Positions 5,119 through 46,043 are shown, counted from the stretch's first letter. The stretch is 58,596 nt of DNA from Lentisphaeria bacterium (GCA_017456495.1 JAFTJI010000028.1:1-58596); one strand, 5' to 3'. Program-made: numbers and translations. Notes: generated by a model from the sequence alone, not told the origin.

Positions 5119-5129
5119 GACGTTCCCTT

Positions 5130-7076: not shown

Positions 7077-7090
7077 GGTTGATTCCTTTC

Positions 7091-10892: not shown

Positions 10893-11609
10893 ATGAGACT
10901 ATTACACAAAAGAAACAAATGCTTCACACTGATTGAACTTCTGGTCGTAATCGCAATCATCGCAATCCTTGCCGGAATGCTGCTGCCTGCGCTGAATAAT
11001 GCAAGAGCACACGCAAAGGCTTCCAGTTGTACTGCAAAGTTGAAACAGCTGGGAACTTATACGACCCTTTACAGCGATGATAATGCCGGCTTTATTATTC
11101 CTGCGTATGTGAAGAAGTGGGGATCAAATCACACTTGGGCAGTGGTTCTGAGAGGAGAGATGAAAATGGATTGGAAACTTCTCTGGTGTCCCGGAGATCC
11201 GCCGCCGGTCATGAGCCGTGAACATATTCCCAATGCCCTGATCAATATGAGTGATTATATCCGCTATTCATTGAATCAGAATGCTTCCCCGTTCAGCAAC
11301 GATGCCTCGTTTACTCCGACTCTCTGGAAAACCTCACACATCAAACAGCCTTCCAATTTTATTCATGCGATGGACCGGAAAAATACTCATGCGTTCTCCC
11401 CGAAACCGCGTATCGGCAAGCCGTTTTTTGACAAGAACAGTCTTGAACAAAATTCCAGTTTCCCTGTTCTGGGATGGCACGGCGGATCTGTTTCGTTCCT
11501 GCATTTCGACGGTCACACTTCCAGTACCAAACGCGTACCGATAGATCCCTCTGTTGATAAATGGCTGTGGTTCCGGACGGGAGACTCTGATGAACCGTAT
11601 GCAGATTGA
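10893..11609 (+). CDS. Prepilin-type N-terminal cleavage/methylation domain protein, H-X9-DG (DUF1559-like) pseudopilin
   Basis: [24 protein letters not shown] class III signal and C-terminal [14 protein letters not shown] (H-X9-DG). ATG at 10893 follows GGAGA. Confidence 0.9.
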
Positions 11610-11658
11610 TTTCTGTTTGTAATATTTTTAAGCACGATAATAAGGAGTATTTCAGAGA

Positions 11659-12411
11659 ATGTCTGTTTTGCAACAAAAAATGAAACAATTACACAAAAGA
11701 AACAAATGCTTCACACTGATTGAACTTCTGGTCGTAATCGCGATCATCGCAATCCTTGCCGGAATGCTGCTGCCTGCGCTGAATAATGCCAGGGGACGGG
11801 CACGCGCTACTGATTGTATTTCGAGACTGAAACAGCTGGGGCTTTTCAATCAGACCTACAGTGATGATTCCGGAGATTGCATTATACCTTCCTATGTAAA
11901 AAAATGGCATGGAAATTATACATGGGCACGGGTTCTCAACCTTAACTATGGTGTCGAACGCAAGTTTTTTGTGTGTCCCGGCAATCCGCCGCCGTCTGGA
12001 AATTATGAAAATCCCGATCTGAAGAATATGAACTATATTATCCGGTACGGTTACAACAGGTACGCTTCACAGTATTGTGATTCCACCTCTGAAATTCCGA
12101 GATTCCATAAATTATCCAATATCAAAAATCCCTCGAGATTTGTACATGTTATGGATCGAAAAAACGCTTATGTATTCCGTGGGGTATCAGGTTATCCGTT
12201 TTTTGCAAATGTATCAGGGGGACCCGGTGAGGATTTGCGGAGCTGGCCTGTGGTTTCAGAAAACTGGCATGCAAGAAGTGCTTCTATGCTGCACATGGAT
12301 GGTCATGTGACAAATACAACGACACTTCCGATCAAAGCTGAAGATGATCCTTACATGTGGTATCGTACCGGAGACAGTTCTGAATCATACTCAGATACCA
12401 TAAGTGAATGA
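11659..12411 (+). CDS. Prepilin-type H-X9-DG pseudopilin (tandem paralog)
   Basis: Same [24 protein letters not shown] signal and C-terminal [14 protein letters not shown]. An alternative start at 11680 (MKQLHK) is possible. Confidence 0.9.
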
Positions 12412-12458
12412 TGCTGAAAATGTTACGATCTCGATTAAAAAAATATTAAGGAGTAAAA

Positions 12459-13475
12459 ATGTCTGCACTAGAACAGAAGATAGACCATTACATCAAAGAG
12501 GGCGTTTTTGACGGGGCGGTTATCCTTGCCGGAACAGAAAAAGAAGATCTGTTTTCCCATACGCAGGGGCTTTCCAACCGGAATACGAACCGTCCCATGA
12601 GTATGGACACTGTCTTTGATGTATCAAGTATTTCCAAGCCTATGGGGACAGCGACTTCGGTTCTGCTGTTAGCGGAACGCGGTCTGCTGGATCTGGACCG
12701 TCCGTTTACAGATTATCTTCCCGAATACAACGGAACGATGGTGAATCCGAACGTTAATTTCCGGATGCTTGCCAGTCATTATTCCGGGATCATTCCGGAT
12801 TATCCCCTGGGCGTTTCATCGGAAGAACTGATGTCCCGGATGATGAAATCTCCGTTTGTACACGAACCGAATACTTTGTTCCGTTACTGCTGTGTCAATT
12901 ACAATTTTATGAGTCTGATCGTTGAAAAAATCAGCGGTCAGCCGCTGGAAGTGTTCGCGGAAGAAAATATTTTCAAGCCCCTTGGCATGACAGATACCGC
13001 CTGGGCGACCCCGAAACCGGAACAGCGGGACCGTTTGGTGATCCATTGCCGTTGTGTCGACAGTGATCCGGCGGTGATTTTTGACCGCTGGGCGCGTGTT
13101 TTGCATCCTCATGCCATGGGAAATGCGGGGATTTTCACAACTGCACCGGACCTTGCAAAATACGCCAGAATGATCCTGCGGAAAGGAAAAGGATTTTTCC
13201 GGAGTGATATCGTTGAACGCGAAATGTTCCGGAATTTTGCTCCGGAGGGGATGAAACCCCGTTCGTTCGGATGGGATCTCACCCCGGAACTGCTGATCAA
13301 AAACTTCTCGGATCAGACCATTTACCACAGCGGTTCCAGCGGACAATCCATGTGGATCGACTGGGGTACCGGAAAATTCTGTATTGTTCTGACCAATCTG
13401 TTCGGGGAGCATGATGCAGGAATTGCCGCCCGCCTGGATATAGCAAATGAAATAACAGGAGAAATATGGAAATGA
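12459..13475 (+). CDS. Serine hydrolase of the beta-lactamase/transpeptidase-like family (PF00144-like)
   Basis: SxxK motif SISKPMGTA. Size and overall pattern resemble class C-like esterases. AAGGAG RBS. Confidence 0.7.
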   Translation: MSALEQKIDHYIKEGVFDGAVILAGTEKEDLFSHTQGLSNRNTNRPMSMDTVFDVSSISKPMGTATSVLLLAERGLLDLDRPFTDYLPEYNGTMVNPNVNFRMLASHYSGIIPDYPLGVSSEELMSRMMKSPFVHEPNTLFRYCCVNYNFMSLIVEKISGQPLEVFAEENIFKPLGMTDTAWATPKPEQRDRLVIHCRCVDSDPAVIFDRWARVLHPHAMGNAGIFTTAPDLAKYARMILRKGKGFFRSDIVEREMFRNFAPEGMKPRSFGWDLTPELLIKNFSDQTIYHSGSSGQSMWIDWGTGKFCIVLTNLFGEHDAGIAARLDIANEITGEIWK

Positions 13476-14335
13476 AACTGTTCGGATTCATTATCGGAGT
13501 TCTTTTCTTCCATTTGGTCTGCGCCGATCAAATTGCGGAAAGAACTGCATGGCTGAAAAAATTCAATGCAGCAAAAGATCCCCTTCCCATTCTGGAAGAA
13601 GGGATGAAATCTTCAGATGCGGAGATTCAGGCAAAAGCTGTTTTTGAGTATTTTCAAATCAAAAAAGATGCCGCGTATCCGGTACTTCTGCGTCTGGCAA
13701 ACAAGTCTTCGGACCAGCTCGCCAGAGTTCTGATCTGCTGCGCTGAAACTTTGAAGGATAAAAAGCAGAAAGCAGAATTGCTGAAAGCGATCGCTTACGG
13801 AACATACAGTTCCTCTGCTGCGGCAGAAGCAAACCGGAAGAATTTTTCCTTCCACAGAATCAATGTCCGCTTGCAGGATAGAAAAGATTGGGACTTCAAC
13901 ATTGAAAAAATCATGACTGTCCGGATTCCGGAAACGAACTGGAAATCTTTCCATGACAGAGATGCTTCGGGGCACATGAAAGGCTTTTTCAGTGTGGATT
14001 ATTCAGACAAACATTGGGTGAAAGCGGGTCCGAAGACTTTGAAATATCAGCCGCTTGTCTGGTACCGCATCAGATTTACAGCTCCGAAAAAACCTGTATG
14101 CAATGCAGCGGAACTCCACTTTGCAGGAGTTGAAGCAACGGCATGGGTCTGGTTGAATGGCATTTACATCGGTGCCAGAGATGAAGGGCAGTCTGCCTGG
14201 AACAAACCCTTTGCCCTTGATATTACCAACGAAATCCGTTGGGGAGAAGAAAATGTACTTGTTGTCAGAGTCAGTTCCACTGATGTTTCTGACAGCGGAA
14301 TTTATAAACCTGTAACTTTGGAGATTTTGAAATGA
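13466..14335 (+). CDS. Secreted protein with C-terminal GH2-type sugar-binding (galactose-binding-like) domain
   Basis: Signal peptide MKLFGFIIGVLFFHLVCA. The C-terminal VWYRIRF...AELHFAGVEATAWVWLNGIYIGARDEG...FALDITNEIRWGEENVLVVRV resembles the GH2 N-terminal beta-sandwich. The start overlaps the upstream stop. Confidence 0.5.
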   Translation: MEMKLFGFIIGVLFFHLVCADQIAERTAWLKKFNAAKDPLPILEEGMKSSDAEIQAKAVFEYFQIKKDAAYPVLLRLANKSSDQLARVLICCAETLKDKKQKAELLKAIAYGTYSSSAAAEANRKNFSFHRINVRLQDRKDWDFNIEKIMTVRIPETNWKSFHDRDASGHMKGFFSVDYSDKHWVKAGPKTLKYQPLVWYRIRFTAPKKPVCNAAELHFAGVEATAWVWLNGIYIGARDEGQSAWNKPFALDITNEIRWGEENVLVVRVSSTDVSDSGIYKPVTLEILK

Positions 14336-15012
14336 AAAAAACAACATTCTTTGCACTTTTCACCGCTTTGACCACCTCTGTTTTCGCACAGGAAATCGAA
14401 TGGGATTTTACCAAAGGAATCAAACCGAACGGCCCTTATGAATTTAAGCTTATCGCACCGGCAACTATTGAAGACGGCTATCTTTATGTGAATGATCCTC
14501 TCGACAGAAAATGCCCGGGATCAGTTTATTCAATGCAGAAATATGCAGACCTCACTCCGAAAGGGGCATTTTCCATGACATTTGTATTCACCATGGAAAA
14601 AGCAAGATCACCGCAGTATTACCAGATGCTTTGGGACAGCAAAGGTGATTACTACGATAAAAAAAGCGGTAAGCCGCTTGACAATTCCGGTTTTACAGTA
14701 GCGATCTACCGTCCGAAAAACGCAAAGGTCATGGGAATCAATATCTGGCTTGGAAATGGAAAAGAGACCTCGACCATCAAAACAAAGAGAGTCCCCTTTG
14801 AAATCGGGAAAAAATATACTCTGGTGTTCAATTATGATGGAAAGAGCAAATATTCCGTTACGCTGGATGGAAAAGTTCTCGGAGAAGGAACTGTGGCTCC
14901 CGGCGGTGCGATCGGTCAGGCTATCTACAAACCCACGATCGGGAACCGTTCTGTTGGAAGTTACTTCCCCTTTGACGGAAAGATCTACTCTGTCAAAATG
15001 GTCAAAAAATGA
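14332..15012 (+). CDS. Secreted LamG/concanavalin-like jelly-roll domain protein
   Basis: Signal peptide, stand-alone roughly 200-aa domain ending GNRSVGSYFPFDGKIYSVKM. Clear paralog of the N-terminus of the next gene. ATGA start/stop overlap. Confidence 0.55.
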   Translation: MKKTTFFALFTALTTSVFAQEIEWDFTKGIKPNGPYEFKLIAPATIEDGYLYVNDPLDRKCPGSVYSMQKYADLTPKGAFSMTFVFTMEKARSPQYYQMLWDSKGDYYDKKSGKPLDNSGFTVAIYRPKNAKVMGINIWLGNGKETSTIKTKRVPFEIGKKYTLVFNYDGKSKYSVTLDGKVLGEGTVAPGGAIGQAIYKPTIGNRSVGSYFPFDGKIYSVKMVKK

Positions 15013-15015
15013 GGT

Positions 15016-18000
15016 ATGACAGTGAATTTCAAAACTAAAATAACAGCTCTGCTTGGCGGACTTCTCTTATGGAGCGGTCTCCATGCAGATGTTTTGGAAT
15101 GGGATTTTTCCAAAGGGATCAATCCGCTGAACAACAAGATGCAGTTCAAAATTTCCGGAACGGCAGCAGAAATCAAAGATGGTTATCTGCGGCAGCCGGT
15201 CGTCAACCGGACAACTCCGGGCGGCATTTTTGCAGCTGAAAAATACCCTGAACTGACCCCGCAGGGTGCGTTCCGGATAGCCTTTGAAATCACGATGGAG
15301 CCGAAACGAAATCAGGACAGTTTTCTGTTTCTCTGGGATAACAAAGGGGATTACTATGGAGACAAGTCGGGGAAACCGCAGAAAAATTCCGGGTTCACCA
15401 TTGGAATGTACCGGGCTCCGAATGGAAAAGTGATCGTTCCCAAAGCTTGGCTCGGATTCGGAAAAGAGACCTTTGCCGTCAACGGGGTTTCCTTTGCAGT
15501 TGTGCCCGGTAAAAAATATCTCTTTGAATTTTACTACAACGGCAGCGGACTTGCGGCATTTTACATTGATGGTAAGCTGAACAGGGAAGTTGCAGTATTT
15601 CCCGGCGGACCTGTTGCGCCCGCACTGTATAAAACAGCGATCGGAAACCGCACTGTCGGAAATTATCTCGGCTTTGATGGAAAGATCCACTCTGTAAAAA
15701 TGACGACAGCGAAAGCAGAACATCTGGTTGTGCGAGCTGCCGGACGGAAAGTTTTCCAGCGCGGAGAAAAGAATGCTGTTCTCAAAGTTGAGGTACGGAA
15801 TGTCTCCCATCAGGAAACGGAAGGCTTGAAAGTCGGCGGGAAAAAGATTATTTCCGTTCCTGTCCGAACAAATCTTACAGCAGGAGATTATAAAGTTGAT
15901 TTTTCTTTCAACGGAAAAAAATATTCTCTGTCTTACACTGTAGCGCCTTTGATCCACGAAAAAATGCCCATTCTGATGTGGGGATTCGGTGATTCTTTTC
16001 ATATTCTCAGAAAAACCGGTTTTACGCATATGCTGAACAGCTATGCCGGACCGCAGTTCTTCCGTCCGAAAGAAAATCACAAAGCAAGAATGCTTTCTGA
16101 ACTGGATGAGATGTACAAGTACGGCTTCTTTTTCAGCGACTATTTTACGTTGCCGCATTATCCGCAGGTCACCAAAAAATATCCCCGTCTGACCCGTGAC
16201 GGAAAGCCGTATCTCAAGGGAAGAAGGATGAATCTGGATGCCCAGAATCCGCAGGCACAGAAAGATATGCGGGAATGGGCGGAAAAATTTGCTTTGACGT
16301 ACGATGGACATCCTGCACTTCAGATGCTTGATATCTGTTCTGAGATCCGTGACTGGTCCACACCGTCATTTTCAAAATATGAGCGGGATGCATGCCGGAA
16401 AGCCACCGGAGCGGATATTCCTGCGAAGGTGAATGGACGCTCGATCCATTATCTGCAGATCCCCGGTCTCCCTGTCAGCAGGATCATTCCGGATAACAAT
16501 CCTTATCTGGTTTATTACCGCTGGTTCTGGTCAAACGGAGACGGCTGGAATCCGCTGTTCTCGATCATTGCAGACGGCTATCGGAAACATCTTCCGTCCA
16601 CATTCAAAAGCTACTTTGCGCCTGCGGTCCGTCAGCCGCCCTGCAGAGCAGTCGGCGGCAATGCTGATTTCCTCGGACAGTGGTCCTATTCCAATCCGGA
16701 GCCCATGCTGCTGGCAGCCACAGCGGATGAACTTCTTGCAACTGGAAACGGCAGACCTGTTATTCAGGGAACGCAGCTGATCCTTTACCGCAACGCGACG
16801 GCTCCGAAAAATGTGAAAGTCTCACCGGAACCGGCTTGGGTCGCAAAGGAAAAAGATGCAAATTACATCACGAACCCGCCGGATACACTGATCCAGTCTG
16901 TCTGGGCAACGCTCTCCAGACCGGTTCACGGAATGATTTTCCACGGTGACGGTTCTTTCTATCCGCCGCCGATCAAAGGAGCAAGCATTTACAGATGCAC
17001 CAATGACAAATCGGAACCTGCATTACGGAAACTGATTCAGGAAGTCATCCAGCCTCTGGGTCCGGCATTGCGGAATGTAAAAGGAAAGAAATCTGAAGTT
17101 GCGATCCTGCACAGTTTCACCTCTTCTGTTTTAGCGTTGCGCGGAAGTTACGGCTGGAGCGGCTGGCTGCCCGATCTGCATATTGCCCTTCAGACAGCAG
17201 GTCTTGATCCGTATGTGATTTTTGAAGAGGATATTCTGGAAGGAAAAATCGACCATGTCAAGATCATTTTCCTTTCCCATTGTGATGTTCTGACGGAGTC
17301 TCTTTACAAAAAGCTGATGGAATTTCAGGTTCGCGGCGGAATCATTATCGCCGATGAGTTTGCGCCTCCGGCAATATTGCCGAACCTCCGTTTCCATACG
17401 GTTGCGCGCGGCAGAGATGTTCTGCAGAATAAGAAAAATCTTGTGAAGCTTGGTGCCACGATCCGGAAACAGCTTGCGGGACATTATGTTCCCCGTTCTG
17501 AAACCAGCACCCCCGACCTGATCTCTCACCTCCGCGACGATTATCTGTTCGTAATCAACGACAAACGGATATTCGGAGATTATATCGGTCAGTGGAAACG
17601 GTTTGCGGAAAAAGCTCTCCCGAACAAAGGGACTGTAACGGTCAACCGGAAAGCCGGAGCTGTTTATGATCTGGTCAAACGCTGCGCTGTTCCGTTCAAA
17701 GTCGTCAACGGAAAAACCGTCATAGATGTTGCCTTTGACGGTGCCGGCGGTAAACTGTTCCTGCTGCTTGATTCTCCGCTCAAACCGTTCACACTGGTTG
17801 TGAAACCGAATGGTGAAGTGATTGCAAAAAGCGGAACCTCTGCAGTGATCCCGGTTCAGCTGATCGTGCGTGATCCCAACGGAAAAGAAACCGATGATAC
17901 TCATTACGGAGCAGCTGTAAACGGAGAGTTCCGTTATAAGATCAATATTCCCGAAAATGCTGCGAAAGGAAAGTGGTGTGTTGAACTGAAGAGTCTTCCC

Positions 18001-18039
18001 GATCAGAGCATTGTGAAAGGAGCGTTGATCGTAAAATGA
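15016..18039 (+). CDS. Large secreted protein: N-terminal LamG-like domain plus probable glycoside-hydrolase-like TIM barrel and GH42-trimerisation-like module
   Basis: Signal peptide. Residues about 25-225 align by eye with the 14332-15012 product. The central and C-terminal regions resemble GH42-type architecture only loosely (IIFLSHCDVL...GGIIIADEF). Confidence 0.45.
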   Translation: MTVNFKTKITALLGGLLLWSGLHADVLEWDFSKGINPLNNKMQFKISGTAAEIKDGYLRQPVVNRTTPGGIFAAEKYPELTPQGAFRIAFEITMEPKRNQDSFLFLWDNKGDYYGDKSGKPQKNSGFTIGMYRAPNGKVIVPKAWLGFGKETFAVNGVSFAVVPGKKYLFEFYYNGSGLAAFYIDGKLNREVAVFPGGPVAPALYKTAIGNRTVGNYLGFDGKIHSVKMTTAKAEHLVVRAAGRKVFQRGEKNAVLKVEVRNVSHQETEGLKVGGKKIISVPVRTNLTAGDYKVDFSFNGKKYSLSYTVAPLIHEKMPILMWGFGDSFHILRKTGFTHMLNSYAGPQFFRPKENHKARMLSELDEMYKYGFFFSDYFTLPHYPQVTKKYPRLTRDGKPYLKGRRMNLDAQNPQAQKDMREWAEKFALTYDGHPALQMLDICSEIRDWSTPSFSKYERDACRKATGADIPAKVNGRSIHYLQIPGLPVSRIIPDNNPYLVYYRWFWSNGDGWNPLFSIIADGYRKHLPSTFKSYFAPAVRQPPCRAVGGNADFLGQWSYSNPEPMLLAATADELLATGNGRPVIQGTQLILYRNATAPKNVKVSPEPAWVAKEKDANYITNPPDTLIQSVWATLSRPVHGMIFHGDGSFYPPPIKGASIYRCTNDKSEPALRKLIQEVIQPLGPALRNVKGKKSEVAILHSFTSSVLALRGSYGWSGWLPDLHIALQTAGLDPYVIFEEDILEGKIDHVKIIFLSHCDVLTESLYKKLMEFQVRGGIIIADEFAPPAILPNLRFHTVARGRDVLQNKKNLVKLGATIRKQLAGHYVPRSETSTPDLISHLRDDYLFVINDKRIFGDYIGQWKRFAEKALPNKGTVTVNRKAGAVYDLVKRCAVPFKVVNGKTVIDVAFDGAGGKLFLLLDSPLKPFTLVVKPNGEVIAKSGTSAVIPVQLIVRDPNGKETDDTHYGAAVNGEFRYKINIPENAAKGKWCVELKSLPDQSIVKGALIVK

Positions 18040-19208
18040 AAAACAGAGAGATGCAAACCGTCAAAACAGATGTTGTTGTTTGCGGAGGCGGAATTGCCGG
18101 TTGTGCTGCAGCGATCCAGGCTGCACGCAGCGGAGTAAAGACTATTCTTCTGGAAAAAACAGTTTTTCCCGGCGGGCTCGCCACCTCCGGACTGGTCTAT
18201 ATTTATCTGCCGATTTGCGACGGTTATGGAAATCAGATGGTTCATGGACTTGGAGAAGAGCTGCTTCACGCCTCCATCAAGTATGGGCCCGGTGATATTC
18301 CGGAGAATTGGCGTTCTCCGGAACCGAAGATGATGAACCAGAGATTTTTTACAAAATTTTCACCGCCAGCCTTTGTTCTGAGCTTGGATGAACTTCTGGA
18401 AGAAGCAGGCGTGGATGTCTGGTATGATACTCTTCTGTGCGATGCGGAAACGGATGAAGATTCCCGTGTCCGGGCAGTTGAAGTGGAGAACAAGAGCGGC
18501 AGGATCCGGATCGAAGCGCACTGTTTTGTTGATGCAACAGGCGATGCTGACCTTGCGGTCCGGTGCGGTGCAGAGATCATCGAATCAACCAACCTGCTTT
18601 CTATCTGGGCAATCGAATATGATAAGAATGCGCTCGAGGACTGGCATAAACTTGCGCCGGAACTGGGACGGATCGTGATCAATCAGAAAGATCCTCAGGC
18701 AGAAGAGCACCGGGGAATTTCCGGCGCAGGCGTCAGCCGTTTTATCCGGGAAACCCGCGGATTTGTCAGGGAACGTTATCAGACAGCATTGAAAAACGGC
18801 GCGAACAGAAATGATCTGTTCCCCGTGCTGCTGCCCTCCATGGCAGATTACCGGACGACCCGTTTTATCAAGGGAAAAATGACTCTTGACAGCAGTATGT
18901 CCAAAATGAGCTTTGAGGATTCCATCGGCATGATCGGCGATTGGACAAAGCCGGCTCCCACCGTGGAACTGCCTTACAGGATCCTGCTGCCGGAAAAAGT
19001 CCGCGGTCTGCTTGCTGCCGGACGGTGTATTTCTGTTCAGGGAGAATCTGTTGAACTGACCCGTGTGATTCCTGTTGCCGCAATGACAGGACAGGTTGCA
19101 GGTTATGCTGCAGCTCTTTCCCTGCAAAAAGGCTGTATGCCGGATGAATTGCCTGTGGAAGAGCTGCAAAACGAATTGAAACAGCAGGGCTTTATTCTGC
19201 ACAAATAA
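18036..19208 (+). CDS. FAD-dependent oxidoreductase (PF12831-like)
   Basis: VVVCGGGIAGCAAAIQAARSGVKTILLEK dinucleotide-binding motif followed by GGLATSG. ATGA overlap with the upstream gene. Confidence 0.8.
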   Translation: MKNREMQTVKTDVVVCGGGIAGCAAAIQAARSGVKTILLEKTVFPGGLATSGLVYIYLPICDGYGNQMVHGLGEELLHASIKYGPGDIPENWRSPEPKMMNQRFFTKFSPPAFVLSLDELLEEAGVDVWYDTLLCDAETDEDSRVRAVEVENKSGRIRIEAHCFVDATGDADLAVRCGAEIIESTNLLSIWAIEYDKNALEDWHKLAPELGRIVINQKDPQAEEHRGISGAGVSRFIRETRGFVRERYQTALKNGANRNDLFPVLLPSMADYRTTRFIKGKMTLDSSMSKMSFEDSIGMIGDWTKPAPTVELPYRILLPEKVRGLLAAGRCISVQGESVELTRVIPVAAMTGQVAGYAAALSLQKGCMPDELPVEELQNELKQQGFILHK

Positions 19209-19224
19209 GACGAGAGGAGTTTTT

Positions 19225-21543
19225 ATGTCTTGGATTGATTGGATCATTGCAATCGTGCCGGTGGCATTTGTGATCGGGATCGGTATCTGGTCCAGAAGAT
19301 ATGTCCGCGGAGTATCGGATTACATGGCGGCGGGGCGAATCTGCCGGCGTTATGTTCTGACCACGGCGCTGATGGCAGAAGCGATTGGATTGGTCACACT
19401 GATTTCCTATGTGGAAGTCCGTTATATGACAGGGTTTGCATTGACTTACTGGAACAACCTGATGCTTCCGCTTGGGATGATCCTGACCATGTCGGGCTAC
19501 TGTTACTACCGTTACCGCGAAACCAAAGCGATGAGTATCGGGCAGTATCTGGAAATGCGTTACAATCGGAGTTTGCGTGTTTTTGCAAGTTTCCTGCGTT
19601 CCATTTCTGAAATCATAGCCAACTCGATCATGCCGGCTCTTGCTGCAAGATTCTTCATTACATTTCTTGACCTTCCGCAGAAATTTACAGTTTTCGGTTT
19701 TGAGATCTCCACCTTTGCCGTTATCATGCTGGTGACACTGACGTTTGCAGTGTTGTTGATCTGTTTGGCAGGACAGCTTTCTCTTACGGTCACGGACACG
19801 ATCCAGGGGTTGATCTTCTTCCCCGTCATGCTCGTGTTTATTGCGTTCGTCTGGTACAAATTCTCCTGGTCCGGAGAAATCATGGAGGTTCTCAGCGACC
19901 GTTCAGCGGGGGAAAGTTTTCTGAATCCTTACGATATCAAGAAGCTGAAAGATTTCAACATCCTCATGCTTCTTACGACATTTATCGGAATGTTTCTGAA
20001 CCGTCTTGCCGGTATCGGAGGAGAAGCCAGTGCCGCATTGAATGCGCATGAAGCCAAGATGGGAGCGATCCTCGGAACATGGCGCGGTGCATTCATGGGA
20101 ATCTTTATGGTGCTGATCGCCACTGCTCTGATCACGATGCTGCATCATAAAAACTTCTCTGCAGATGCAAAAGAGATCCGTACAAATATTTCAAGAAAAG
20201 CTGCGGAAGAATTGGTGAATGATCCGGCAGAGCGGGCAGCTCTGATGCAGAAAATAAGAGCGATCCCGGAACATAAACATCAAAAAGGAATTGATGCGCC
20301 CTACTCCAGAAAAAATTCCCCTGATGAAGTCTATTTCAATACGGCACAGGCTCAGTTCGGAACAGATGGAGAGGGAAGTTCCAGGACCCAGCAGTTCAAA
20401 ACGCTGTTCCGTCAGCTGCTTCTGCCTGCAACGTTCCGTCATATGCTCCCGGTGGGGCTGACAGGATTGTTCTGTATGATGATCCTCCTGTTCATTCTGT
20501 CCACGGATGACAGCCGTATTTTCTGCGCCAGCTCCACGCTGGTTCAGGACTGTGTGGTTCCGTTCTATAAGAAAGGAGAACTGACTCCGGAAAAACATGT
20601 ATTTTACTTACGTGTTCTGTCGATCCTCGTTGGCGTGGTCTTCTTTATCGGTTCACTGTTCATGTCGCAGCTGGACTTTATCAACCTGTTCGTTCAGATC
20701 ACCTACGGGATGTGGCTTGGCGGCTGCGGACCGATGCTTGTGTTCGGGCTTTACAGCCGGTTCGGAACTGCTGCGGGTGCCTGGAGTTCCCTGCTGAGCG
20801 GTATGGGCTTGACTGCGTTCGGGATCTTCCTGCAGCGCGGCTGGGCGAAAACAATTTATCCCTGGCTGGAAAGCAACGGATATGTCCCCGCCGTTCAGAA
20901 TTTCCTGACGACCATCTCCAAGCCGTTCTATCCGTATGTTGACTGGACGGAGATGACCCGGTTGAAATGTCCCATCAACTCTTATGAGTTCTATCTGTGT
21001 TCCATGCTGCTGTCACTGGCAGTTTATGTGATCGTCTCCAAGCTGACATTCAAGGAACCGTTCAATCTTGACCGTATGCTTCATCGCGGAGAGTATGCAG
21101 TGGAAGGCGAAGAAAAGAAGACATTCAGCTTCAAAGAAAATTTCAATCTGAAACGGTTTTTCTCCATCTTCGTAGGAATCACTCCCCAGCATACACGCGG
21201 CGACAAAATCATTGTCTGGAGTGTGTTCATCTATACGTTCGTTTACAAATTCCTGTTGTTCTTTGTAGGTGTGGCAATCTGGAACGAGATCTCTCCCTGG
21301 CCCATTGAGTGGTGGGGCAAATACTTCTTCATCACCTGTCTGCTGGTTCCCGGTATTTCCGGTTTGATCACCGTCGTCTGGTTCACCATCGGAAGTTCCA
21401 GAGACCTTGTCCGGATGTTCCGGGATTTGGAACAACGCACCGATAACCCGCTGGACAACGGAATGGTGGAAGGAGATATTTCCATTTCTGACAAAGAGCA
21501 GGTGGAAAAAGTTGAAGCACCGAAAAACGAAGAGAAAAAGTAA
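19225..21543 (+). CDS. Sodium:solute symporter (SSS) family transporter, long form
   Basis: At least 13 hydrophobic segments, SSS-like N-terminus (IAIVPVAFVIGIGIWSRRYVRGVSDYMAAGR) and a charged C-terminal tail. GAGGAG RBS. Confidence 0.8.
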   Translation: MSWIDWIIAIVPVAFVIGIGIWSRRYVRGVSDYMAAGRICRRYVLTTALMAEAIGLVTLISYVEVRYMTGFALTYWNNLMLPLGMILTMSGYCYYRYRETKAMSIGQYLEMRYNRSLRVFASFLRSISEIIANSIMPALAARFFITFLDLPQKFTVFGFEISTFAVIMLVTLTFAVLLICLAGQLSLTVTDTIQGLIFFPVMLVFIAFVWYKFSWSGEIMEVLSDRSAGESFLNPYDIKKLKDFNILMLLTTFIGMFLNRLAGIGGEASAALNAHEAKMGAILGTWRGAFMGIFMVLIATALITMLHHKNFSADAKEIRTNISRKAAEELVNDPAERAALMQKIRAIPEHKHQKGIDAPYSRKNSPDEVYFNTAQAQFGTDGEGSSRTQQFKTLFRQLLLPATFRHMLPVGLTGLFCMMILLFILSTDDSRIFCASSTLVQDCVVPFYKKGELTPEKHVFYLRVLSILVGVVFFIGSLFMSQLDFINLFVQITYGMWLGGCGPMLVFGLYSRFGTAAGAWSSLLSGMGLTAFGIFLQRGWAKTIYPWLESNGYVPAVQNFLTTISKPFYPYVDWTEMTRLKCPINSYEFYLCSMLLSLAVYVIVSKLTFKEPFNLDRMLHRGEYAVEGEEKKTFSFKENFNLKRFFSIFVGITPQHTRGDKIIVWSVFIYTFVYKFLLFFVGVAIWNEISPWPIEWWGKYFFITCLLVPGISGLITVVWFTIGSSRDLVRMFRDLEQRTDNPLDNGMVEGDISISDKEQVEKVEAPKNEEKK

Positions 21544-21574
21544 AACGCTGTTTTGTTGAGAAGCGATCATATCA

Positions 21575-21619
21575 AACCTGTCAGCACGGAAGAACCTTTT
21601 TCCGGCTGACAGGTTTTAT
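21575..21619 (+). terminator. Intrinsic terminator at the end of the 10.9-21.5 kb operon
   Basis: Stem AACCTGTCAGC / GCTGACAGGTT followed by TTTAT. Confidence 0.7.
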
Positions 21620-21664
21620 GGATTTGACAGAAAACAGAAAAATCCGCACAGGAAAGGTTGTTTT

Positions 21665-26528: not shown

Positions 26529-26560
26529 AAACTTGGTTAACCTAGTTGGAGTATATCCCC

Positions 26561-27616
26561 ATGTCCCTTGATTTTGCTCAAATAGCAAAGAAAATTGAAA
26601 TGGATATTAAAAACGGCACATATCCTGATACGCTGCCGTCTATTACTTCATTGGCAAAAATGTTTCAGGTTTGTACCTCCACGGTCAAACGGAGTTTGTC
26701 TCTGCTGCGGTCACAGGATCTTGTATCAGGAGAACACGGGCGGTGCGTCAGAGTAAATTCCAAAGCAGCCAGCAATCCTTATTTCAGGAAAAATGTGATT
26801 TTTTTGACTTCACTGGTGAATCTTTCCATGCCGTTTTATGCGGAAACGCTGGAGCTGTTGACGAAACTGCTTTTTGAAAAGTATATCAGCGTTCATATTT
26901 TCATTTCGGAAAATCAGGTAAATGAATGCAGTTTCACCCCGGATTGTGTCGTGTTTATCAACAGCGAGAAACAAGTTTTGCTTGATACGCTTCTTCGCAG
27001 ATTTCCGGATTGCAAAGTGATAAAACTGAATCAGCGGTCCAGCCGTTTTCCTTATGTGATCACAGACAATTACAACGCCGGTTACAAAGCGATGCGCCAT
27101 CTTGCAGAGGATTGCGGACACACACATATCGGTATTCTTGCGACCCAGCTGCACTACCCTCAGGCAATTTTTCATCAACGGTACTGCGGGGCAATGGATT
27201 ACGCAAAGAAACATCCGTCTGTAAAACTCAGTATGGTTGAAGTGGCGGAACTGGATTTGGAATCAGCAGGAAGATTAATGCCCCAGCTGATGAAAAAAGA
27301 TCCGCAGATCAGCGCGGTTTTTGCATCCTGCGACATCATGGCTCTGGGCGTTTATGGTTATGCAGCAAGATACGGATTGAAGATCCCGGAGGATCTGGCT
27401 GTTATCGGCGTTGATAATCAGAGTTTCGGAAAAAGTCTGGTTCCGCCTCTGACAACGATGTCGGAGAACGTGAAAGAGACTGCGGATCATCTTTATTTCG
27501 GAATCCTCAACCTGCTCATGAACAATCCTGTTGACAGAGAATGCGTTACGCAGCCGTATCTTATCGAAAAAGAGAGCACCGTAAAAAATTTATCCAGAGA
27601 GAGAGGTGAATTTTGA
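26561..27616 (+). CDS. Chimeric regulator: GntR-type winged HTH fused to a LacI/PBP1-type sugar-binding domain
   Basis: N-terminus LPSITSLAKMFQVCTSTVKRSLSLLRSQDLVSGEHGRCVRV is GntR-like. The rest (VITDNYNAGYKAMRHLAEDCGHTHIGILA ... DIMALGVYGYAARYGLKIPEDLAVIGVDN) is LacI-family-like. ATG at 26561 follows GGAG. Confidence 0.8.
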   Translation: MSLDFAQIAKKIEMDIKNGTYPDTLPSITSLAKMFQVCTSTVKRSLSLLRSQDLVSGEHGRCVRVNSKAASNPYFRKNVIFLTSLVNLSMPFYAETLELLTKLLFEKYISVHIFISENQVNECSFTPDCVVFINSEKQVLLDTLLRRFPDCKVIKLNQRSSRFPYVITDNYNAGYKAMRHLAEDCGHTHIGILATQLHYPQAIFHQRYCGAMDYAKKHPSVKLSMVEVAELDLESAGRLMPQLMKKDPQISAVFASCDIMALGVYGYAARYGLKIPEDLAVIGVDNQSFGKSLVPPLTTMSENVKETADHLYFGILNLLMNNPVDRECVTQPYLIEKESTVKNLSRERGEF

Positions 27617-29358
27617 ACAGACCGCCGCAACAGATATTCCCCCCTGCTTCCGACCGGAAGGCATGGACAGAAGCAGCCCGAAAGCCCCTTAACAAAGGAC
27701 TGAAAAAAGATATTATGAAAAGAGCCGGGGAGCTTCTGAAAGAACCGATCCCCGATTTTACGGCTTCTCTTTTCATGAATTTCGTCCGGAACGGAAACCG
27801 GAATAAGCTGGAAACGCCTTACTTTCTGCGCAGACAGAATCTCGGGATCCTTGCCGTGGCAGAGTGCTTTGAACATAAAGGAAAATATCTCGACAGAGTC
27901 ATAGACTATATCTGGGAGATCACTTCCGAACATACTTGGTGCGTTCCGGCTCACTGCCGGCTGCAGGATGATCCGTTCCCGGAATTTCCTGTTGAAATTG
28001 TTGACCTGTTCAATGCTGAAACCGCCGCCGTGCTTGCGCTGACGATGAATCTTCTGGAAGAAGAGATCAAAGCGGTCTCTCCTAACTTCATAAAGATGAT
28101 CAAAGAAAAAATCGTCAGCCGCATTGCTGTTCCGTTGGAAAACGGACCGGATCCGTTCTGGTACGAGGGAATCAACAACTGGACCCCCTGGTGCTGCACA
28201 AACTCACTCTGTGCGGTCATCTGGGCGTTACGCGATGAACCGGAACGGCAGGAACGGCTGATCCGGAAACTTTATACGGCAATCAAAAACTTTATACGAC
28301 ACTATCCGGAAGATGGTTTCTGTTTTGAAGGACCGTCGTACTGGGCAGTTTCCCCCGGAAAAATGCTCGGCTTTTTCGAGCTGATGGGGGAATGGGACGA
28401 TGATCCGAAAGTCAAAAAGATGGCGGAATATATTGCAGATACCCGCATGACTTCTGTCAACAGCATGAATTTCGGAGACAATATATCCACCGCAAAATTT
28501 CCAGCCTGGATCATTTACCGTTTCGGGGAAAGAGTCAACAGCCAGCCCTTGAAAAATATGGCTCTTGAGTGCGTGAAAAAACTGGTTTTCCAGGATATTA
28601 CCCGTGAACTTTTCAATATGCTCGGATATCTTTTCTGGCTGCCGGGAAAGACCGGAAAAGTAAAATTTACAGGAAAACCGTTATCTTTTTATGATAAAAT
28701 GCAGGTTTTTGTGATGCGGCAGAATGATATGACTCTTGCGGTAAAACGCGGTCATGCCTGGAGCCATCATCATCTTGATATCGGGCATTTTATGTTGTTT
28801 TTCAAGGATAAACCAATAATCATTGATCTTGGCAAGCCGGAATATACGCGGGATACTTTTAACGAAAACCGTTTCAAGAATGATATCATGAACAACAGAG
28901 GACATAATATCCCGTTATTCAATGACGTTGGACAGCTTGAACTTGCCCCCCCGGCTCCCGATGCAATGAGTTATCAGGAGGGAAAAGATTTTATCAGCTG
29001 TAAAATGGATTTAACGACAGCGTATTGTCCGGAAGCAAAACTGAAATCCTTCGTCCGGGAACTTGTCTACAACCGGAAAACAAAAGTTCTGGATCTGCTG
29101 GACCGCTGGGATTCAGATGAGGAAAAGAACGATATTTATGCAAATTTCTTCACGCCTGCGAAAGTTGTGCAGCGTGACGGAAAATTATTCATCGGAGAAG
29201 CAGAAGTAACTGTCGAAGGCGGCAGTATCTCTGTAGAAAAAATCAAGGTTACAGATGTAAACCAGCGTCTTGCATGGGGAAACTCTCTTAACAGGATCCG
29301 GATCAAAACACAAACAGGAAAACAGGGAAATTGGCGGGTGTCATTTCTCTTGAAGTAA
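27613..29358 (+). CDS. Heparinase II/III-like polysaccharide lyase family protein
   Basis: The (alpha/alpha) toroid-like N-half and the WSHHHLDIGHFMLF block are typical of the heparinase II/III C-terminal domain. The TTG start overlaps the upstream TGA, so the start is uncertain. Confidence 0.65.
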   Translation: MNRPPQQIFPPASDRKAWTEAARKPLNKGLKKDIMKRAGELLKEPIPDFTASLFMNFVRNGNRNKLETPYFLRRQNLGILAVAECFEHKGKYLDRVIDYIWEITSEHTWCVPAHCRLQDDPFPEFPVEIVDLFNAETAAVLALTMNLLEEEIKAVSPNFIKMIKEKIVSRIAVPLENGPDPFWYEGINNWTPWCCTNSLCAVIWALRDEPERQERLIRKLYTAIKNFIRHYPEDGFCFEGPSYWAVSPGKMLGFFELMGEWDDDPKVKKMAEYIADTRMTSVNSMNFGDNISTAKFPAWIIYRFGERVNSQPLKNMALECVKKLVFQDITRELFNMLGYLFWLPGKTGKVKFTGKPLSFYDKMQVFVMRQNDMTLAVKRGHAWSHHHLDIGHFMLFFKDKPIIIDLGKPEYTRDTFNENRFKNDIMNNRGHNIPLFNDVGQLELAPPAPDAMSYQEGKDFISCKMDLTTAYCPEAKLKSFVRELVYNRKTKVLDLLDRWDSDEEKNDIYANFFTPAKVVQRDGKLFIGEAEVTVEGGSISVEKIKVTDVNQRLAWGNSLNRIRIKTQTGKQGNWRVSFLLK

Positions 29359-29396: not shown

Positions 29397-30083
29397 ATGA
29401 AAAGTAACGCAGCAGTTCGGAAGAAACAGTTCACCCTGATAGAACTTCTTGTTGTAATCGCTATCATCGCGATTCTGGCAGGAATGCTTCTGCCCGCATT
29501 GAATCAGGCAAGAGAAAAAGCACGCGGCACCACTTGCGTCGGAAACCTGAAACAGCTTGCTCTGATCAAACACATGTATGCAGACTCCAATAATGGTTTT
29601 CTGCCCGGTCCCAATAACCAAGGTGCGGCCCCTTATTCCACATGGCTTTCAGTTCTCTATAACACAAAATATATTACCAGCCGGAACAACAAGCCGGAAT
29701 ATGTGCACTATAACGATGCCGGTGTGAACAAAATGCTGGATTGTCCGTCAACGACCACTTCCGATCCGGGCTGGAGATATGATCAAAACGTTACTTCCTC
29801 TGACTATTCCATCAACTGGTACGGCAGCAATAACAACGGAACCAACTCCGGAGCCCATTGTCTGAAAAAAGTGATCAATCCTTCAAACTGGCTGATGACT
29901 ATGGATGCCAAAGGAACAAACGCATCCGGAACAAAAACACCTAACGTGATCTCCGGCATTGATCAGATCTCCTCCATCCGCCACAATCAGAAATTCAACT
30001 CTGCAATGGGCGATGCCAGTGTCAGAACATTCCAGTATTCTATGATGAAAAACAGTTACCTGCAGTACTACTGGGGTAAATAA
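29397..30083 (+). CDS. Prepilin-type pseudopilin, H-X9-D(A) variant
   Basis: [24 protein letters not shown] signal. The C-terminal [15 protein letters not shown] places His and Asp at H-X9-D spacing, but with Ala instead of Gly. Confidence 0.85.
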
Positions 30084-30097
30084 AACGGGGAGCTGAA

Positions 30098-32446: not shown

Positions 32447-33334
32447 ATGAGTGTTATTTTACCTGCGCTGGTTGCGCTTGCCATCGGGCAGTCTCACCTC
32501 GTAAAAATTGATGACCGGACAGAAGCCAGGATCACAGTTCAAAAAGAATCTGTAAAAATCAACTGGGTCTGCAATGAATCCAATATGGCTCATGTCAAAA
32601 GTTATTACCACAAAAAGAACCGCTGGAATCTCTTTATCGGAGAAAATGTTGACTTGTGGTTTACTCCCCACTCCTACAAATCCCACAAAGTGGTTTATCC
32701 CCCGAATTACCGGGTCATGTCCAACCCATCCGGAAACTTCTTCAGTGCATTCCTCGGAGTACCCCGTCCCTGCAAAGATTTCCGTCATGAGGTGAAGCTG
32801 AATGATAAAAGCTGGACCGTTGAATGGGAAATCCCTTATGCCGCACTGGAATCCGGGACGTTCAACAAACCAGCCGTTTCCAAAACATATTCGCCTAATG
32901 TGTATTGGGCATTTCAATTCAACCGCCGCAGCGAATCCGGCGGAAAGAAAACCTATGTAAAATCTCCGGCTTTCGTCATTGAACTTCCCAAGGATCTTAT
33001 TGCGCCCTACCAGCAGATCATGCTGTACAATTTCACCGCAAAGAACGGAAAAGCGGCAGGAGAGACTGTTGTTGATTTCAAACTGAACAACCGGTTCAAG
33101 AGTGCTTTTAACGGAAAATTGAAAATCGTTCTTCTGGAAGGCAGCGCGGAAACCGTTCTCAAAGAACAGGCAGTAACGATCCCGGCACAAGGCAATATGG
33201 CAATTTCCCATACGGCAAAATTACCGGAAAAAGCTGTTAAATTCGGTATTAAAGTTTATGTATATGATGCCAAAGGACTTCTGGTTCGGGTCTCTTATGA
33301 TCTGCCGGTCAAAAATCCCTGGGTTGCATTCTGA
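32447..33334 (+). CDS. Hypothetical protein, CBM9/DOMON-like N-terminal domain
   Basis: GENVDLWFTP ... WTVEWEIPYAAL ... WAFQFNRR resembles CBM9 signatures. AAGGAG RBS. Confidence 0.4.
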   Translation: MSVILPALVALAIGQSHLVKIDDRTEARITVQKESVKINWVCNESNMAHVKSYYHKKNRWNLFIGENVDLWFTPHSYKSHKVVYPPNYRVMSNPSGNFFSAFLGVPRPCKDFRHEVKLNDKSWTVEWEIPYAALESGTFNKPAVSKTYSPNVYWAFQFNRRSESGGKKTYVKSPAFVIELPKDLIAPYQQIMLYNFTAKNGKAAGETVVDFKLNNRFKSAFNGKLKIVLLEGSAETVLKEQAVTIPAQGNMAISHTAKLPEKAVKFGIKVYVYDAKGLLVRVSYDLPVKNPWVAF

Positions 33335-33348
33335 GTTGAGGTAAGAAC

Positions 33349-46022: not shown

Positions 46023-46043
46023 CCACTTGAGGGACGGAACGAT

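Follow-up and report, generated by a model that had tools for sequence, protein, structure and literature searches.

Background

Why should each sugar-degrading gene cluster of a bacterium carry its own pilin-like gene, placed immediately 5' of the gene for a large secreted enzyme? The question is raised by a 58,596-nt (58.6 kb) stretch of DNA from a Lentisphaeria bacterium (GCA_017456495.1 JAFTJI010000028.1:1-58596), here called the window, in which pilin-like genes start at positions 10893 and 11659 (locus I, 10893-21543), 29397 (locus II), and 40726 (locus III). The host is a gut bacterium of the Lentisphaerota group.

Known prepilin peptidases require Gly at position -1 of their substrates. 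In type II secretion systems (T2SS), the tip subunits of the pseudopilus are thought to contact substrates, and the type IVb minor pilins bind co-encoded secreted proteins (TcpB-TcpF in V. cholerae, CofB-CofJ in ETEC), the pilin mediating release or display of the secreted protein via the pilus machinery. The sugar-binding proteins of the Sulfolobus bindosome carry class III signal peptides, have ABC-type SBP folds, and are encoded beside ABC transporters. In the literature that we found, no function is assigned to the HX9DG/DUF1559 family; its paralogues number 68 in Planctopirus, 74 in Rhodopirellula, and 67 in Verruconatronum. In a proteome study of Verruconatronum alginivorum (Opitutales), a PulG-like pseudopilin was located inside an alginate-induced operon, where it adjoins an SSF symporter and signal-peptide lyases; the organism has a separate T2SS cluster, by which the lyases are exported according to a mere suggestion of the authors (PMC13274419). 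This anecdotal case is the only published precedent found. It comes from another phylum-level lineage, and the paper reports no pairing rule, statistics, or -1 residue.

Here we report that the conserved unit is a two-gene cassette consisting of a pseudopilin gene followed by the gene for one large signal-peptide protein. Its recurrence across the lineage suggests a testable function for this very large family of proteins.

Results and discussion

Four pseudopilin genes

The prepilin N-terminal domain PF07963 (21.7-32.8 bits, cut-off 21.2) and TIGR02532 (21.7-22.0 bits, cut-off 16.3) are matched by all four genes, and the C-terminal H-X9-D(G/A) motif is present in 4/4 products ([36 protein letters not shown] + [12 protein letters not shown]), as a preliminary description of the window had stated. 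The H-X9-DG motif also occurs in 93 of the 113 closest homologues. By family HMM the four genes divide: PF07596 (DUF1559, cut-off 23.3 bits) is passed by 29397 (31.1 bits) and 40726 (42 bits) only, and 10893 and 11659, which give no match, are tied to it only via homologues carrying PF07596 (32-38% identity). Against TIGR04294 (H-X9-DG, cut-off 19 bits), 40726 passes with 26.1 bits, 29397 (DA in place of DG) lies just under the cut-off with 18.0 bits, and 10893 and 11659 are not matched although the literal motif is present in both. Scores against the equivalog models are far under their cut-offs (about 32 vs 88.85 bits for GspG, about 28 vs 80 bits for GspH, and about 30-35 vs 400 bits for PilA). 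The best PDB sequence matches are PilA/GspG helices, and sources label the homologues 'type II secretion system protein'.

A pseudopilin/secreted-protein cassette

Pairing was counted in 80 related loci plus the window, with signal peptides called by a crude heuristic. The gene directly downstream of the pseudopilin gene (+1) encodes a signal peptide in 43/67 cases (64%) vs 18% in the background (p=6e-15), so that the pseudopilin genes do lie directly 5' of genes for secreted, carbohydrate-active-looking proteins, as had been claimed, and do so above chance. The enrichment is kept in non-anchor pseudopilins, i.e., those not chosen by query similarity (14/22, p=5e-6), and the +1 proteins are large (mean 709 vs 370 aa). 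At +2 to +5 and at -1 to -5 the frequency is that of the background; the downstream secreted enzymes of the preliminary description are thereby reduced from a run to one +1 gene. Polytopic proteins (at least 6 TM segments) make up 1.5% at +1, and 29-36% of the +1 genes are without a signal peptide detectable by the crude heuristic. In Lentisphaerota the +1 frequency is 71% vs a background of 20%, while the small sample of Verrucomicrobiota-labeled loci shows no significant pairing (4/16 vs 17%). The pairing is Lentisphaerota-specific, the Verrucomicrobiota sample being small.

The +1 partners include Laminin_G_3, CBM9, DUF4838, DUF6259, GH42, GH123_N, heparinase, PL8, and other types; cultured V. 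vadensis has a 1348-aa CBM4_9+CBM9+GH42-like protein in this position. Only 6 of about 2950 pairs of +1 partners are homologous. Since the partners are nearly all from different families, the cassette is not one duplicated unit. Orthologous cassettes retain their order at 41-53% identity, which upholds the consistent gene order noted earlier. In large part, then, the original observation is borne out, with a conserved unit smaller than proposed.

Gene content of the three loci

The features of the window are collected in Table 1. Genes within the loci are tightly spaced, as described before, with gaps of 3-55 nt and overlaps of 4-10 nt.

Table 1. Coordinates and supporting matches of the genes in loci I to III
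Locus	Feature	Coordinates	Strand	Evidence
I	Pseudopilin A, 238 aa, HX9DG type	10893..11609	+	PF07963 32.8 bits, TIGR02532, 12-residue motif; -1 = Cys
I	Pseudopilin B, 250 aa, tandem paralogue of A	11659..12411	+	54% identity to A, 12-residue motif; -1 = Cys
I	Serine hydrolase, beta-lactamase fold	12459..13475	+	PF00144 E=1e-49; no signal peptide at N-terminus
I	289-aa secreted protein, GH2_N-like sugar-binding domain	13466..14335	+	PF02837 37.9 bits; signal peptide predicted
I	226-aa secreted protein	14332..15012	+	Signal peptide predicted; 47% identity to N-terminus of 1007-aa protein, E=2e-56
I	1007-aa secreted protein, C-terminal MG2-like domain	15016..18039	+	PF01835 29.6 bits, under cut-off
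I	Cytoplasmic FAD oxidoreductase, locus accessory	18036..19208	+	PF12831 E=2e-63; missing from L083, L084
I	Polytopic membrane protein, 772 aa, weakly SSS-like	19225..21543	+	TIGR00813 52 bits vs cut-off 184
II	GntR-HTH + periplasmic-binding-fold regulator, head of locus	26546..27616	+	PF00392, PF13377
II	Heparinase II/III-like protein, no signal peptide	27613..29358	+	PF07940 24.2 bits
II	Pseudopilin C, 228 aa, DUF1559, H-X9-DA	29397..30083	+	PF07596 31.1 bits; -1 = Gln
II	DUF4838 secreted protein, 777 aa, +1 partner of pseudopilin C	30098..32431	+	PF16126 E=4e-49; signal peptide predicted
II	295-aa protein + GH78-like (rhamnosidase six-hairpin) enzyme, accessories	32447..35145	+	PF17389; synteny in L090
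III	Pseudopilin D, 248 aa, DUF1559 + HX9DG	40726..41472	+	PF07596 42 bits, TIGR04294 26.1 bits; -1 = Ser
III	662-aa secreted protein, +1 partner of pseudopilin D	41528..43516	+	Very small family
III	249-aa protein, PF12831 FAD oxidoreductase with HEAT repeats, 603-aa protein, accessories	43591..47855	+	No signal peptides

In locus I the copy numbers are unequal, with 2 pseudopilins and 3 secreted proteins. The GH2-like protein reported for this locus is recovered as the GH2_N-like protein at 13466, and it is the conserved +1 partner in the orthologous loci L083 and L084, where it lies directly 3' of the pseudopilin gene. The serine hydrolase had been counted among the signal-peptide proteins, for which its N-terminus leaves no room; it lies elsewhere in L083, is missing from L084, and is a variable accessory outside the conserved cassette. 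The 1007-aa protein has syntenic orthologues of 990 and 1047 aa in the same two loci and no PDB sequence match. LamG proteins, as previously annotated, find no Pfam match in the window: the 226-aa protein is possibly ConA/LamG-like, to judge from a weak, sub-threshold Laminin_G_3 match in an orthologue. The SSS transporter said to end locus I is better called a weakly SSS-like protein, and it is absent from the orthologous loci.

Locus I alone is led by pseudopilins, whereas locus II starts with the regulator and the heparinase-like gene, so that the term 'pseudopilin-led' applies to the former only. In place of several DUF4838-like proteins the window has one (30098); the orthologous locus L090 (41% identity) has the order pseudopilin, DUF4838, 309-aa protein, rhamnosidase-6H. 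The 662-aa protein of locus III has 17 homologues in 5.8 billion clusters; a pseudopilin gene immediately precedes the homologue's gene in L088 and L089 and lies two genes 5' of it in L085. PF12831 FAD oxidoreductases do occur in two of the three loci (at 18036 and 44337). A conserved three-part module that includes this enzyme is nonetheless contradicted, as PF12831 is not among the common neighbor families and is missing from the orthologous loci. Most later genes of each locus (FAD enzymes, GH78-like, GH42-like, and others) are without a signal peptide.

An invariant helix and a proposed machinery encoded elsewhere

In agreement with the preliminary description, none of the sizeable ORFs in the window matched a T2SS or type IV pilus family; 1.08 Mb of related flanks contained no GspE-type Walker A motif. 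Mature residues 1-25 of the four paralogues are identical ([25 protein letters not shown]), an identity kept despite synonymous codon differences among the genes, and all of 88 homologues have E15 (= +5) and P32 (= +22). A helix shared to this degree speaks for a partner or machinery in common and against a plain membrane anchor, and one shared machinery is predicted from it. A single central T2SS would not argue against locus-specific subunits.

We tentatively propose, as a reading somewhat short of an even chance, that each pseudopilin is a locus-regulated, interchangeable subunit of a single type IV filament or T2SS-type pseudopilus machinery, shared by the loci and encoded elsewhere in the genome, and that it couples the enzyme encoded with it to export or display; the existence of such a machinery in this organism is assumed. 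The locus regulator would induce pseudopilin and partner enzyme as a pair. By its invariant helix the pseudopilin would dock into the shared assembly platform or filament, and its variable head may recognize the co-encoded enzyme in the periplasm and couple it to the machinery, by which the enzyme would be either exported through the outer membrane or displayed on the filament or the surface of the cell. Locus transporters, e.g., the SSS-like protein, would then take up the oligosaccharides, and those enzymes of the locus that lack a signal peptide would complete their breakdown.

Variable heads and the possibility of glycan capture

The heads are hypervariable around a small conserved core (Cys46/Cys99 and His196/Asp206/Gly207/His208). 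A full-length pseudopilin search returned at least 7976 matches, and a head-only search 69 matches in 1.84 billion representatives. The AF2 models are confident (pLDDT 91.5 and 94.2), with a long helix and then beta strands (helix 13-63 in pseudopilin A, pLDDT 91.5). In a Foldseek search against the PDB, the modeled head matched no pilin or other solved structure (best E=3.3).

Hypervariable, locus-specific heads might also be expected if each head binds the poly- or oligosaccharide of its locus at the surface or in the periplasm, in the manner of the bindosome or SusD, and has a partner enzyme of matching specificity, while the filament concentrates substrate for 'selfish' uptake. PF07596 is labeled 'SBP_bac_10' in Pfam, and an older paper describes it as a solute-binding family. 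The sugar-binding Sulfolobus proteins with pilin-type signal peptides are established, and in Akkermansiaceae a type IV-like pilus, MUL2, has been implicated in the attachment and uptake of glycans. Furthermore, a homologue of the 662-aa protein in a presumably different lineage (L087) is without a pseudopilin and comes after ABC-transporter and binding-protein genes, which occupy the pseudopilin's place. We nevertheless consider glycan capture unlikely. The pseudopilin gene adjoins a secreted enzyme and not a transporter, as the rarity of polytopic +1 proteins indicates, and in loci II and III no obvious transporter adjoins it. The modeled head matches no CBM, SBP, or lectin fold, and the His/Asp/His and Cys pair, being conserved in all heads, are not specificity determinants.

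Residue -1 and prepilin processing

The -1 residues of the four window pseudopilins are C, C, Q, and S, in place of the canonical Gly (rarely Ala), and the prepilin HMM matches start only at +1. Among the 113 closest homologues, -1 is G in 3 and A in 3. G or A is found at this position in 5/75 Lentisphaerota paralogues vs 35/35 in Verrucomicrobiota; in Lentisphaerota the residue is essentially unconstrained (S, R, K, C, N, T, Y, D, and others). With the canonical Gly(-1) missing, processing and filament assembly may differ from those of known systems.

These observations, together with the occurrence of secreted-protein pairing in the same lineage that lost Gly(-1), would suit an uncleaved, pilin-like signal anchor that in Lentisphaerota never enters a filament and whose periplasmic head tethers or chaperones the co-encoded enzyme at the cytoplasmic membrane. 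A simple anchor, however, would not keep 25-35 residues, including E5 and P22, invariant under purifying selection, and a relaxed peptidase in this phylum is equally possible; we regard the anchor as quite improbable. A further reading is that adjacency serves no function specific to the locus: duplication would have scattered redundant copies of a major pseudopilin, and their place beside secreted enzymes would reflect nothing more than shared regulation or expression level. This fits the enormous family, its uniform N-termini, and the lack of significant pairing in the Verrucomicrobiota-labeled loci, but is highly improbable given enrichment confined to +1, gene order persisting to 41% identity, heads far too divergent for redundancy, and +1 partners from unrelated families, which rule out simple co-duplication.

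Comparison with known systems

The window genes resemble the HX9DG/DUF1559 family of Planctomycetota, Verrucomicrobiota, and Lentisphaerota in their N-terminal helix, C-terminal H-X9-DG, and massive paralogy; they differ in the missing Gly(-1), and two of the four lie under the family HMM thresholds, their link to the family being the literal motif and homologues only. The alpha-1 helix, with its E5 and P22, is also that of the T2SS pseudopilins (GspG/PulG; GspH-K at the tip). Unlike these, the window genes lie outside a gsp operon in many dispersed copies, each beside a cargo-like gene, and have an approximately 190-aa head without a pilin-like structural match, again with Gly(-1) missing. 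As in TcpB/TcpF, the pilin gene adjoins a secreted-protein gene (64-71% vs 18-20% background). The TcpB/TcpF and CofB/CofJ pairs are found one per genome within a complete pilus operon, whereas the pairs described here are many per genome, away from machinery, and with glycan-degrading cargo.

The loci are also reminiscent of Bacteroidota polysaccharide utilization loci (SusC/SusD) in combining a regulator, secreted CAZymes, cytoplasmic finishing enzymes, and a locus-specific non-catalytic accessory. In contrast to those loci, no SusC (TonB-dependent receptor) or SusD family has a Pfam match among the scanned window ORFs, and the accessory adjoins an enzyme instead of a transporter. The archaeal bindosome and the Akkermansiaceae MUL2 pilus are further cases of pilin-type machinery used for sugar acquisition; neither shows per-enzyme pairing, MUL2 is a single conserved pilus locus, and the bindosome differs in the SBP fold of its proteins and in its neighboring transporters.

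The proposal of interchangeable subunits might be extended to the phylum: Lentisphaerota may have turned the type IV filament/T2SS scaffold into a combinatorial, cargo-addressed system with well over a hundred subunits per genome, one invariant assembly helix, a structurally new head dedicated to one co-encoded secreted enzyme, and processing (or deliberate non-processing) without the need for Gly(-1). This extension is speculative, and we consider it rather unlikely. If true, such cargo-addressed pseudopilins would be a genetically encoded answer to export substrate selection and a non-SusC/D logic for polysaccharide utilization loci.

Regulators upstream of the cassettes

The cassette often has a GntR, LacI, or AraC regulator upstream. 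GntR+Peripla_BP_3, the architecture of the locus II regulator, was found among the upstream neighbors in 16/62, in addition to 2 LacI and 2 AraC. The best promoter-like site near the regulator of locus II is at 26500-26528.

Gene organization of the pseudopilin loci

The contig is a Victivallales-like (Lentisphaerota) metagenome sequence most closely related to Victivallis vadensis and to MAGs assigned to Victivallales and Lentisphaeria; genes identical to those of the window are present in ENA assemblies. A simple ORF map combined with family scans resolved three plus-strand clusters (loci I to III, table below), in each of which the distal genes are mostly cytoplasmic. The 226-aa protein of locus I is a paralogue of the N-terminus of the 1007-aa protein.

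The four genes starting at 10893, 11659, 29397 and 40726 (pseudopilins A to D) had been described as prepilin-like; all pass prepilin N-terminal models, share an identical 25-residue string and literally contain the C-terminal H-X9-D(G/A) motif. Their assignment to DUF1559 holds directly for C and D, which score over the threshold, whereas A and B are joined to the family only via homologues carrying PF07596. The TIGR04294 threshold is reached by D only, with C slightly under it (18.0 bits versus a cut-off of 19). In agreement with the preliminary description, the window contains no match to the secretin, GspE/F, PilB/C/Q and A24 peptidase families of type II secretion system (T2SS) and pilus machinery. 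PDB sequence and profile searches with the 1007-aa, 662-aa and DUF4838 proteins gave nothing useful, and promoter and terminator scans of the window gave counts not clearly above shuffled controls, the two 11-of-12 promoter-scan sites being weak hints only.

Features of the three loci, the remainder of the contig and related loci (positions in the window unless a related locus is named)
Feature	Position	Strand	Content
Locus I	10893-24124	+	Two tandem pseudopilins (A, B) at the start, beta-lactamase-fold serine hydrolase, GH2_N-like protein, 226-aa protein, 1007-aa protein, PF12831 FAD oxidoreductase, SSS-like membrane protein
Last gene of locus I	21665-24124	+	DUF4910/M28-peptidase-like and N-acetyltransferase fusion, 819 aa; PF02522
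Locus II	26546-40369	+	GntR/periplasmic-binding-fold regulator, heparinase-like protein, pseudopilin (C), DUF4838 protein, 295-aa protein, GH78-like, opposite-strand PLP enzyme, GH42-like, 465-aa protein
Locus III	40726-50223	+	Pseudopilin (D), 662-aa protein, 249-aa protein, PF12831+HEAT protein, 603-aa protein, DegT aminotransferase, AraC regulator
Codon of residue -1, A	10920-10922		C, ahead of FTLIE
Codon of residue -1, B	11707-11709		C, ahead of FTLIE
Codon of residue -1, C	29427-29429		Q, ahead of FTLIE
Codon of residue -1, D	40777-40779		S, ahead of FTLIE
Head of pseudopilin A	11007-11609		Modelled alone
Promoter-scan site	10600-10628		11 of 12
Promoter-scan site	26500-26528		11 of 12
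PF02522 protein	50457-51896	-	
PLP-dependent (PALP) gene	35257-36645	-	
215-aa ORF	35173-35820	+	Low-complexity
GFO/IDH/MocA oxidoreductase	22-1065		
GFO/IDH/MocA oxidoreductase	6180-7094		
GFO/IDH/MocA oxidoreductase	7882-8994		
AraC-type regulator	7091-7876		
AraC-type regulator	24140-25018		
AraC-type regulator	49363-50223		
AraC-type regulator	57477-58370		
Low-G+C stretch	4001-6000		36.7% G+C
TPR/Sel1 membrane protein (634 aa) and family-less 190-aa protein	3214-5702	-	
T2SSE-family ATPase, L084	1-101	-	364 aa, PilT-sized
Stretch with 662-aa relative and preceding transporter genes, L087	1749-7992		Relative at 35% identity
Signal-peptide protein of V. vadensis, L028	2524-6570	-	1348 aa

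Pairing of pseudopilin and secreted-protein genes

The association of pseudopilin genes with genes for secreted proteins was analyzed over 80 loci containing relatives of the window pseudopilins, drawn from GTDB species genomes. Genes were called with a simple longest-ORF caller, which reproduces the window map, and one crude signal-peptide heuristic was used for every gene alike. Across 117 pilin-like genes in all, the immediate downstream co-directional non-pilin gene carried a signal peptide in 44 of 72 cases, compared with 153/832 in the background and 9/69 among upstream neighbours (p=4e-14 and 4e-9, respectively). When positions were considered separately, +1 was the sole enriched position (64% signal peptide, p=6e-15), with positions +2 to +5 and -1 to -5 at background frequency. 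The +1 proteins are unusually long (709 versus 370 aa), and polytopic transporters are not enriched among them. Signal peptides were also found in 14 of the 22 +1 genes of 38 pseudopilins that lay in the flanks by accident and not by query similarity (p=5e-6). Families at +1 include Laminin_G_3, CBM9, DUF4838, DUF6259, GH42, GH123_N, heparinase II/III, PL8, arabinofuranosidase and rhamnosidase, and by these memberships the +1 proteins look carbohydrate-active. The window itself encodes five secreted partners, at 13466, 14332, 15016, 30098 and 41528. Upstream co-directional neighbours comprised a GntR+Peripla_BP_3 regulator in 16/62 cases, plus two LacI and two AraC regulators.

Because the enrichment is restricted to +1, and from the neighbour families, the recurrent unit consists of an optional regulator, the pseudopilin(s) and one large secreted glycan-active protein. 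The preliminary description had proposed a larger module of pseudopilin, several signal-peptide CAZyme-like proteins and an FAD oxidoreductase. Its secreted component is borne out at +1, but the serine hydrolase of locus I lacks a signal peptide; the PF12831 enzyme and the SSS transporter fall outside the recurrent unit in both neighbour families and orthologous loci, and the reported LamG proteins have no match inside the window and a weak one in a single orthologue. For Lentisphaerota the observation is thus borne out with robust statistics, and the module must shrink to a two-gene cassette. A co-diversification test, asking whether similar heads (the variable domain after the N-terminal helix) accompany homologous partners, gave p=0.002 by permutation but p=0.25 by Mann-Whitney; it was underpowered, since only 6 homologous partner pairs occur among ~2950, and was dropped as evidence.

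Conservation of the cassettes in relatives

In two relatives of locus I (L083 and L084) the pseudopilin (41% and 53% identity, respectively) still lies ahead of the GH2_N-like protein, GntR or LacI regulators are found upstream of the cassette, and the genes for the serine hydrolase, the FAD enzyme and the SSS protein have moved or are missing. A large protein directly follows the GH2_N-like protein in L083, and in L084 a 232-aa protein separates it from a ~1000-aa MG2-like protein. L084 also carries, ~10 kb upstream of the cassette, a T2SSE-family ATPase gene. No other sign of a type IV filament apparatus was seen in the vicinity of a cassette; a search of locus flanks for GspE-type machinery by Walker-A regular expression, the sole method, found none and is a weak negative.

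The locus II relative L090 (DUF4838 orthologue, 41% identity) retains the gene order AraC, pseudopilin, DUF4838, 309-aa protein, rhamnosidase-6H; no pseudopilin accompanies the remoter DUF4838 genes, at 32% identity in a Verrucomicrobia MAG and at 25% on another contig. The 662-aa family of locus III is tiny (17 matches), and relatives with 42-46% identity still have a pseudopilin upstream, immediately so in L088 and L089 and at a distance of two genes in L085. The more distant relative in L087, presumably another lineage, is preceded by a binding protein (SBP_bac_5) and a pair of ABC permeases, not by a pseudopilin; the accessory system to which this enzyme family is attached therefore differs between lineages. 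In V. vadensis DSM 14823 (NZ_QEKH01000029.1, locus L028) a pseudopilin gene lies just upstream of the gene for a protein that has a signal peptide and combines CBM4_9 and CBM9 with a GH42-like domain.

Conserved helix and variable head

The genes of pseudopilins C and D show many synonymous differences from the others yet encode the same 25 residues; the helix is therefore under purifying selection and not simply copied recently. Recent duplication or gene conversion is thus ruled out for C and D, and is possible for the tandem pair A/B. Across 88 homologues E5 and P22 are invariant, and the head conserves only Cys46, Cys99-Pro100, Ser154, His196, Asp206-Gly207-His208 and a few aromatics; it is otherwise hypervariable, with pairwise head scores between loci near noise. 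The full-length pseudopilin retrieved at least 7976 matches, compared with 69 representatives in 1.84 billion for the head alone, only five of them under 1e-10. AlphaFold2 predicts for full-length pseudopilin A a helix of 51 residues leading into beta strands (pLDDT 91.5), and for the head alone a confident model (pLDDT 94.2, pTM 0.90). Foldseek comparison of both models with the PDB, pilins included, detected nothing significant beyond the N-terminal helix, and in a PDB sequence search similarity was likewise limited to the alpha-1 helix. The conserved Cys46/Cys99, His196, Asp206 and His208 point to a disulfide and to a possible site for metal binding.

Residue -1 and the lineage split

The residue before the cleavage site (-1) is Gly in canonical prepilins. 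None of the window pseudopilins has it there, and among the 113 closest homologues Gly occurs in 3 and Ala in 3. Gly or Ala is found in 35/35 paralogues from Verrucomicrobiota-labelled loci versus 5/75 from Lentisphaerota-labelled loci plus the window, where nearly any residue occurs (L003-L082 and the window). This implies that the prepilin-peptidase step would be altered or absent in Lentisphaerota. Secreted +1 proteins are likewise frequent in Lentisphaerota (37/52, 71%, versus 20% background, p=9e-14) and not significantly enriched in the small Verrucomicrobiota sample (4/16 versus 17%). Loss of the canonical cleavage determinant thus goes together with presence of the cassette, both following the same lineage split. 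Cleavage by signal peptidase I after the helix was considered and rejected, the A-x-A-like motif not being conserved across the four paralogues.

Proposed role of the cassette

We tentatively favour, at somewhat less than even confidence, the proposal that the pseudopilins are interchangeable subunits, each controlled by its locus regulator, that would join one common type IV filament or pseudopilus machinery, the head linking the co-encoded enzyme to export or display. It is preferred because the partner is a secreted enzyme and not a transporter, the head varies freely on a frozen helix, and each unrelated enzyme family owns a pseudopilin. That the pseudopilins instead capture glycan as pilins seems doubtful to us; a type IV-like pilus locus of Akkermansiaceae (MUL2) is implicated in glycan attachment and uptake. 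The residue -1 data favour an uncleaved membrane tether or chaperone, which the frozen helix speaks against and which we consider unlikely. Adjacency without specific function is quite improbable in view of the synteny and position-specificity.

Literature on DUF1559 describes a large paralogous family of unknown function and nothing beyond that, a search for 'H-X9-DG' found nothing relevant, and neither a systematic account of the pairing rule nor the -1 anomaly was found stated; one anecdotal case and conceptual analogues were found. The closest precedent for a locus-embedded pseudopilin is Verruconatronum alginivorum (2026; PMC13274419), in which a PulG-like pseudopilin lies inside an alginate-induced operon beside lyases with signal peptides and an SSF symporter. 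Paralogues number 67 in that genome, another pseudopilin is also over-expressed during growth on alginate, the T2SS genes lie at a different site, and the authors suggest T2SS export and nothing more (PMC13274419). [quoted passage not shown] Within a known family, these genes are set apart by their system-level arrangement, by the missing Gly(-1) and by a head fold that has no solved relatives.

Few paralogue expansions in PVC bacteria are as large as that of DUF1559/HX9DG, and how the T2SS chooses its substrates has long been debated; a rule, conserved across Lentisphaerota, that places one pseudopilin beside one secreted enzyme with a nearby regulator makes both problems testable in the cultivable V. 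vadensis, whose DSM 14823 cassette is directly accessible to experiments. The rule would further describe the way in which Lentisphaerota of gut and rumen organize glycan foraging without SusC/D, and helps annotators to pick out, locus by locus, the key secreted enzyme.

Other features of the contig

The aminoglycoside 3-N-acetyltransferase-like domain (PF02522) occurs in two proteins, both at glycan-locus edges, which suggests amino-sugar N-acetylation/deacetylation chemistry, not antibiotic resistance. The 58 kb also encode four AraC-type regulators and three GFO/IDH/MocA oxidoreductases, alongside the two PF12831 flavoenzymes, a set that hints at oxidative (keto-sugar) steps in glycan breakdown. 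The PALP gene splits locus II, with the GH78-like gene on one side and the GH42-like gene on the other, and the ORF overlapping it is probably spurious. The G+C content falls below the ~47% window average in a stretch spanning the TPR/Sel1 membrane protein and its family-less neighbour, which may be foreign DNA.
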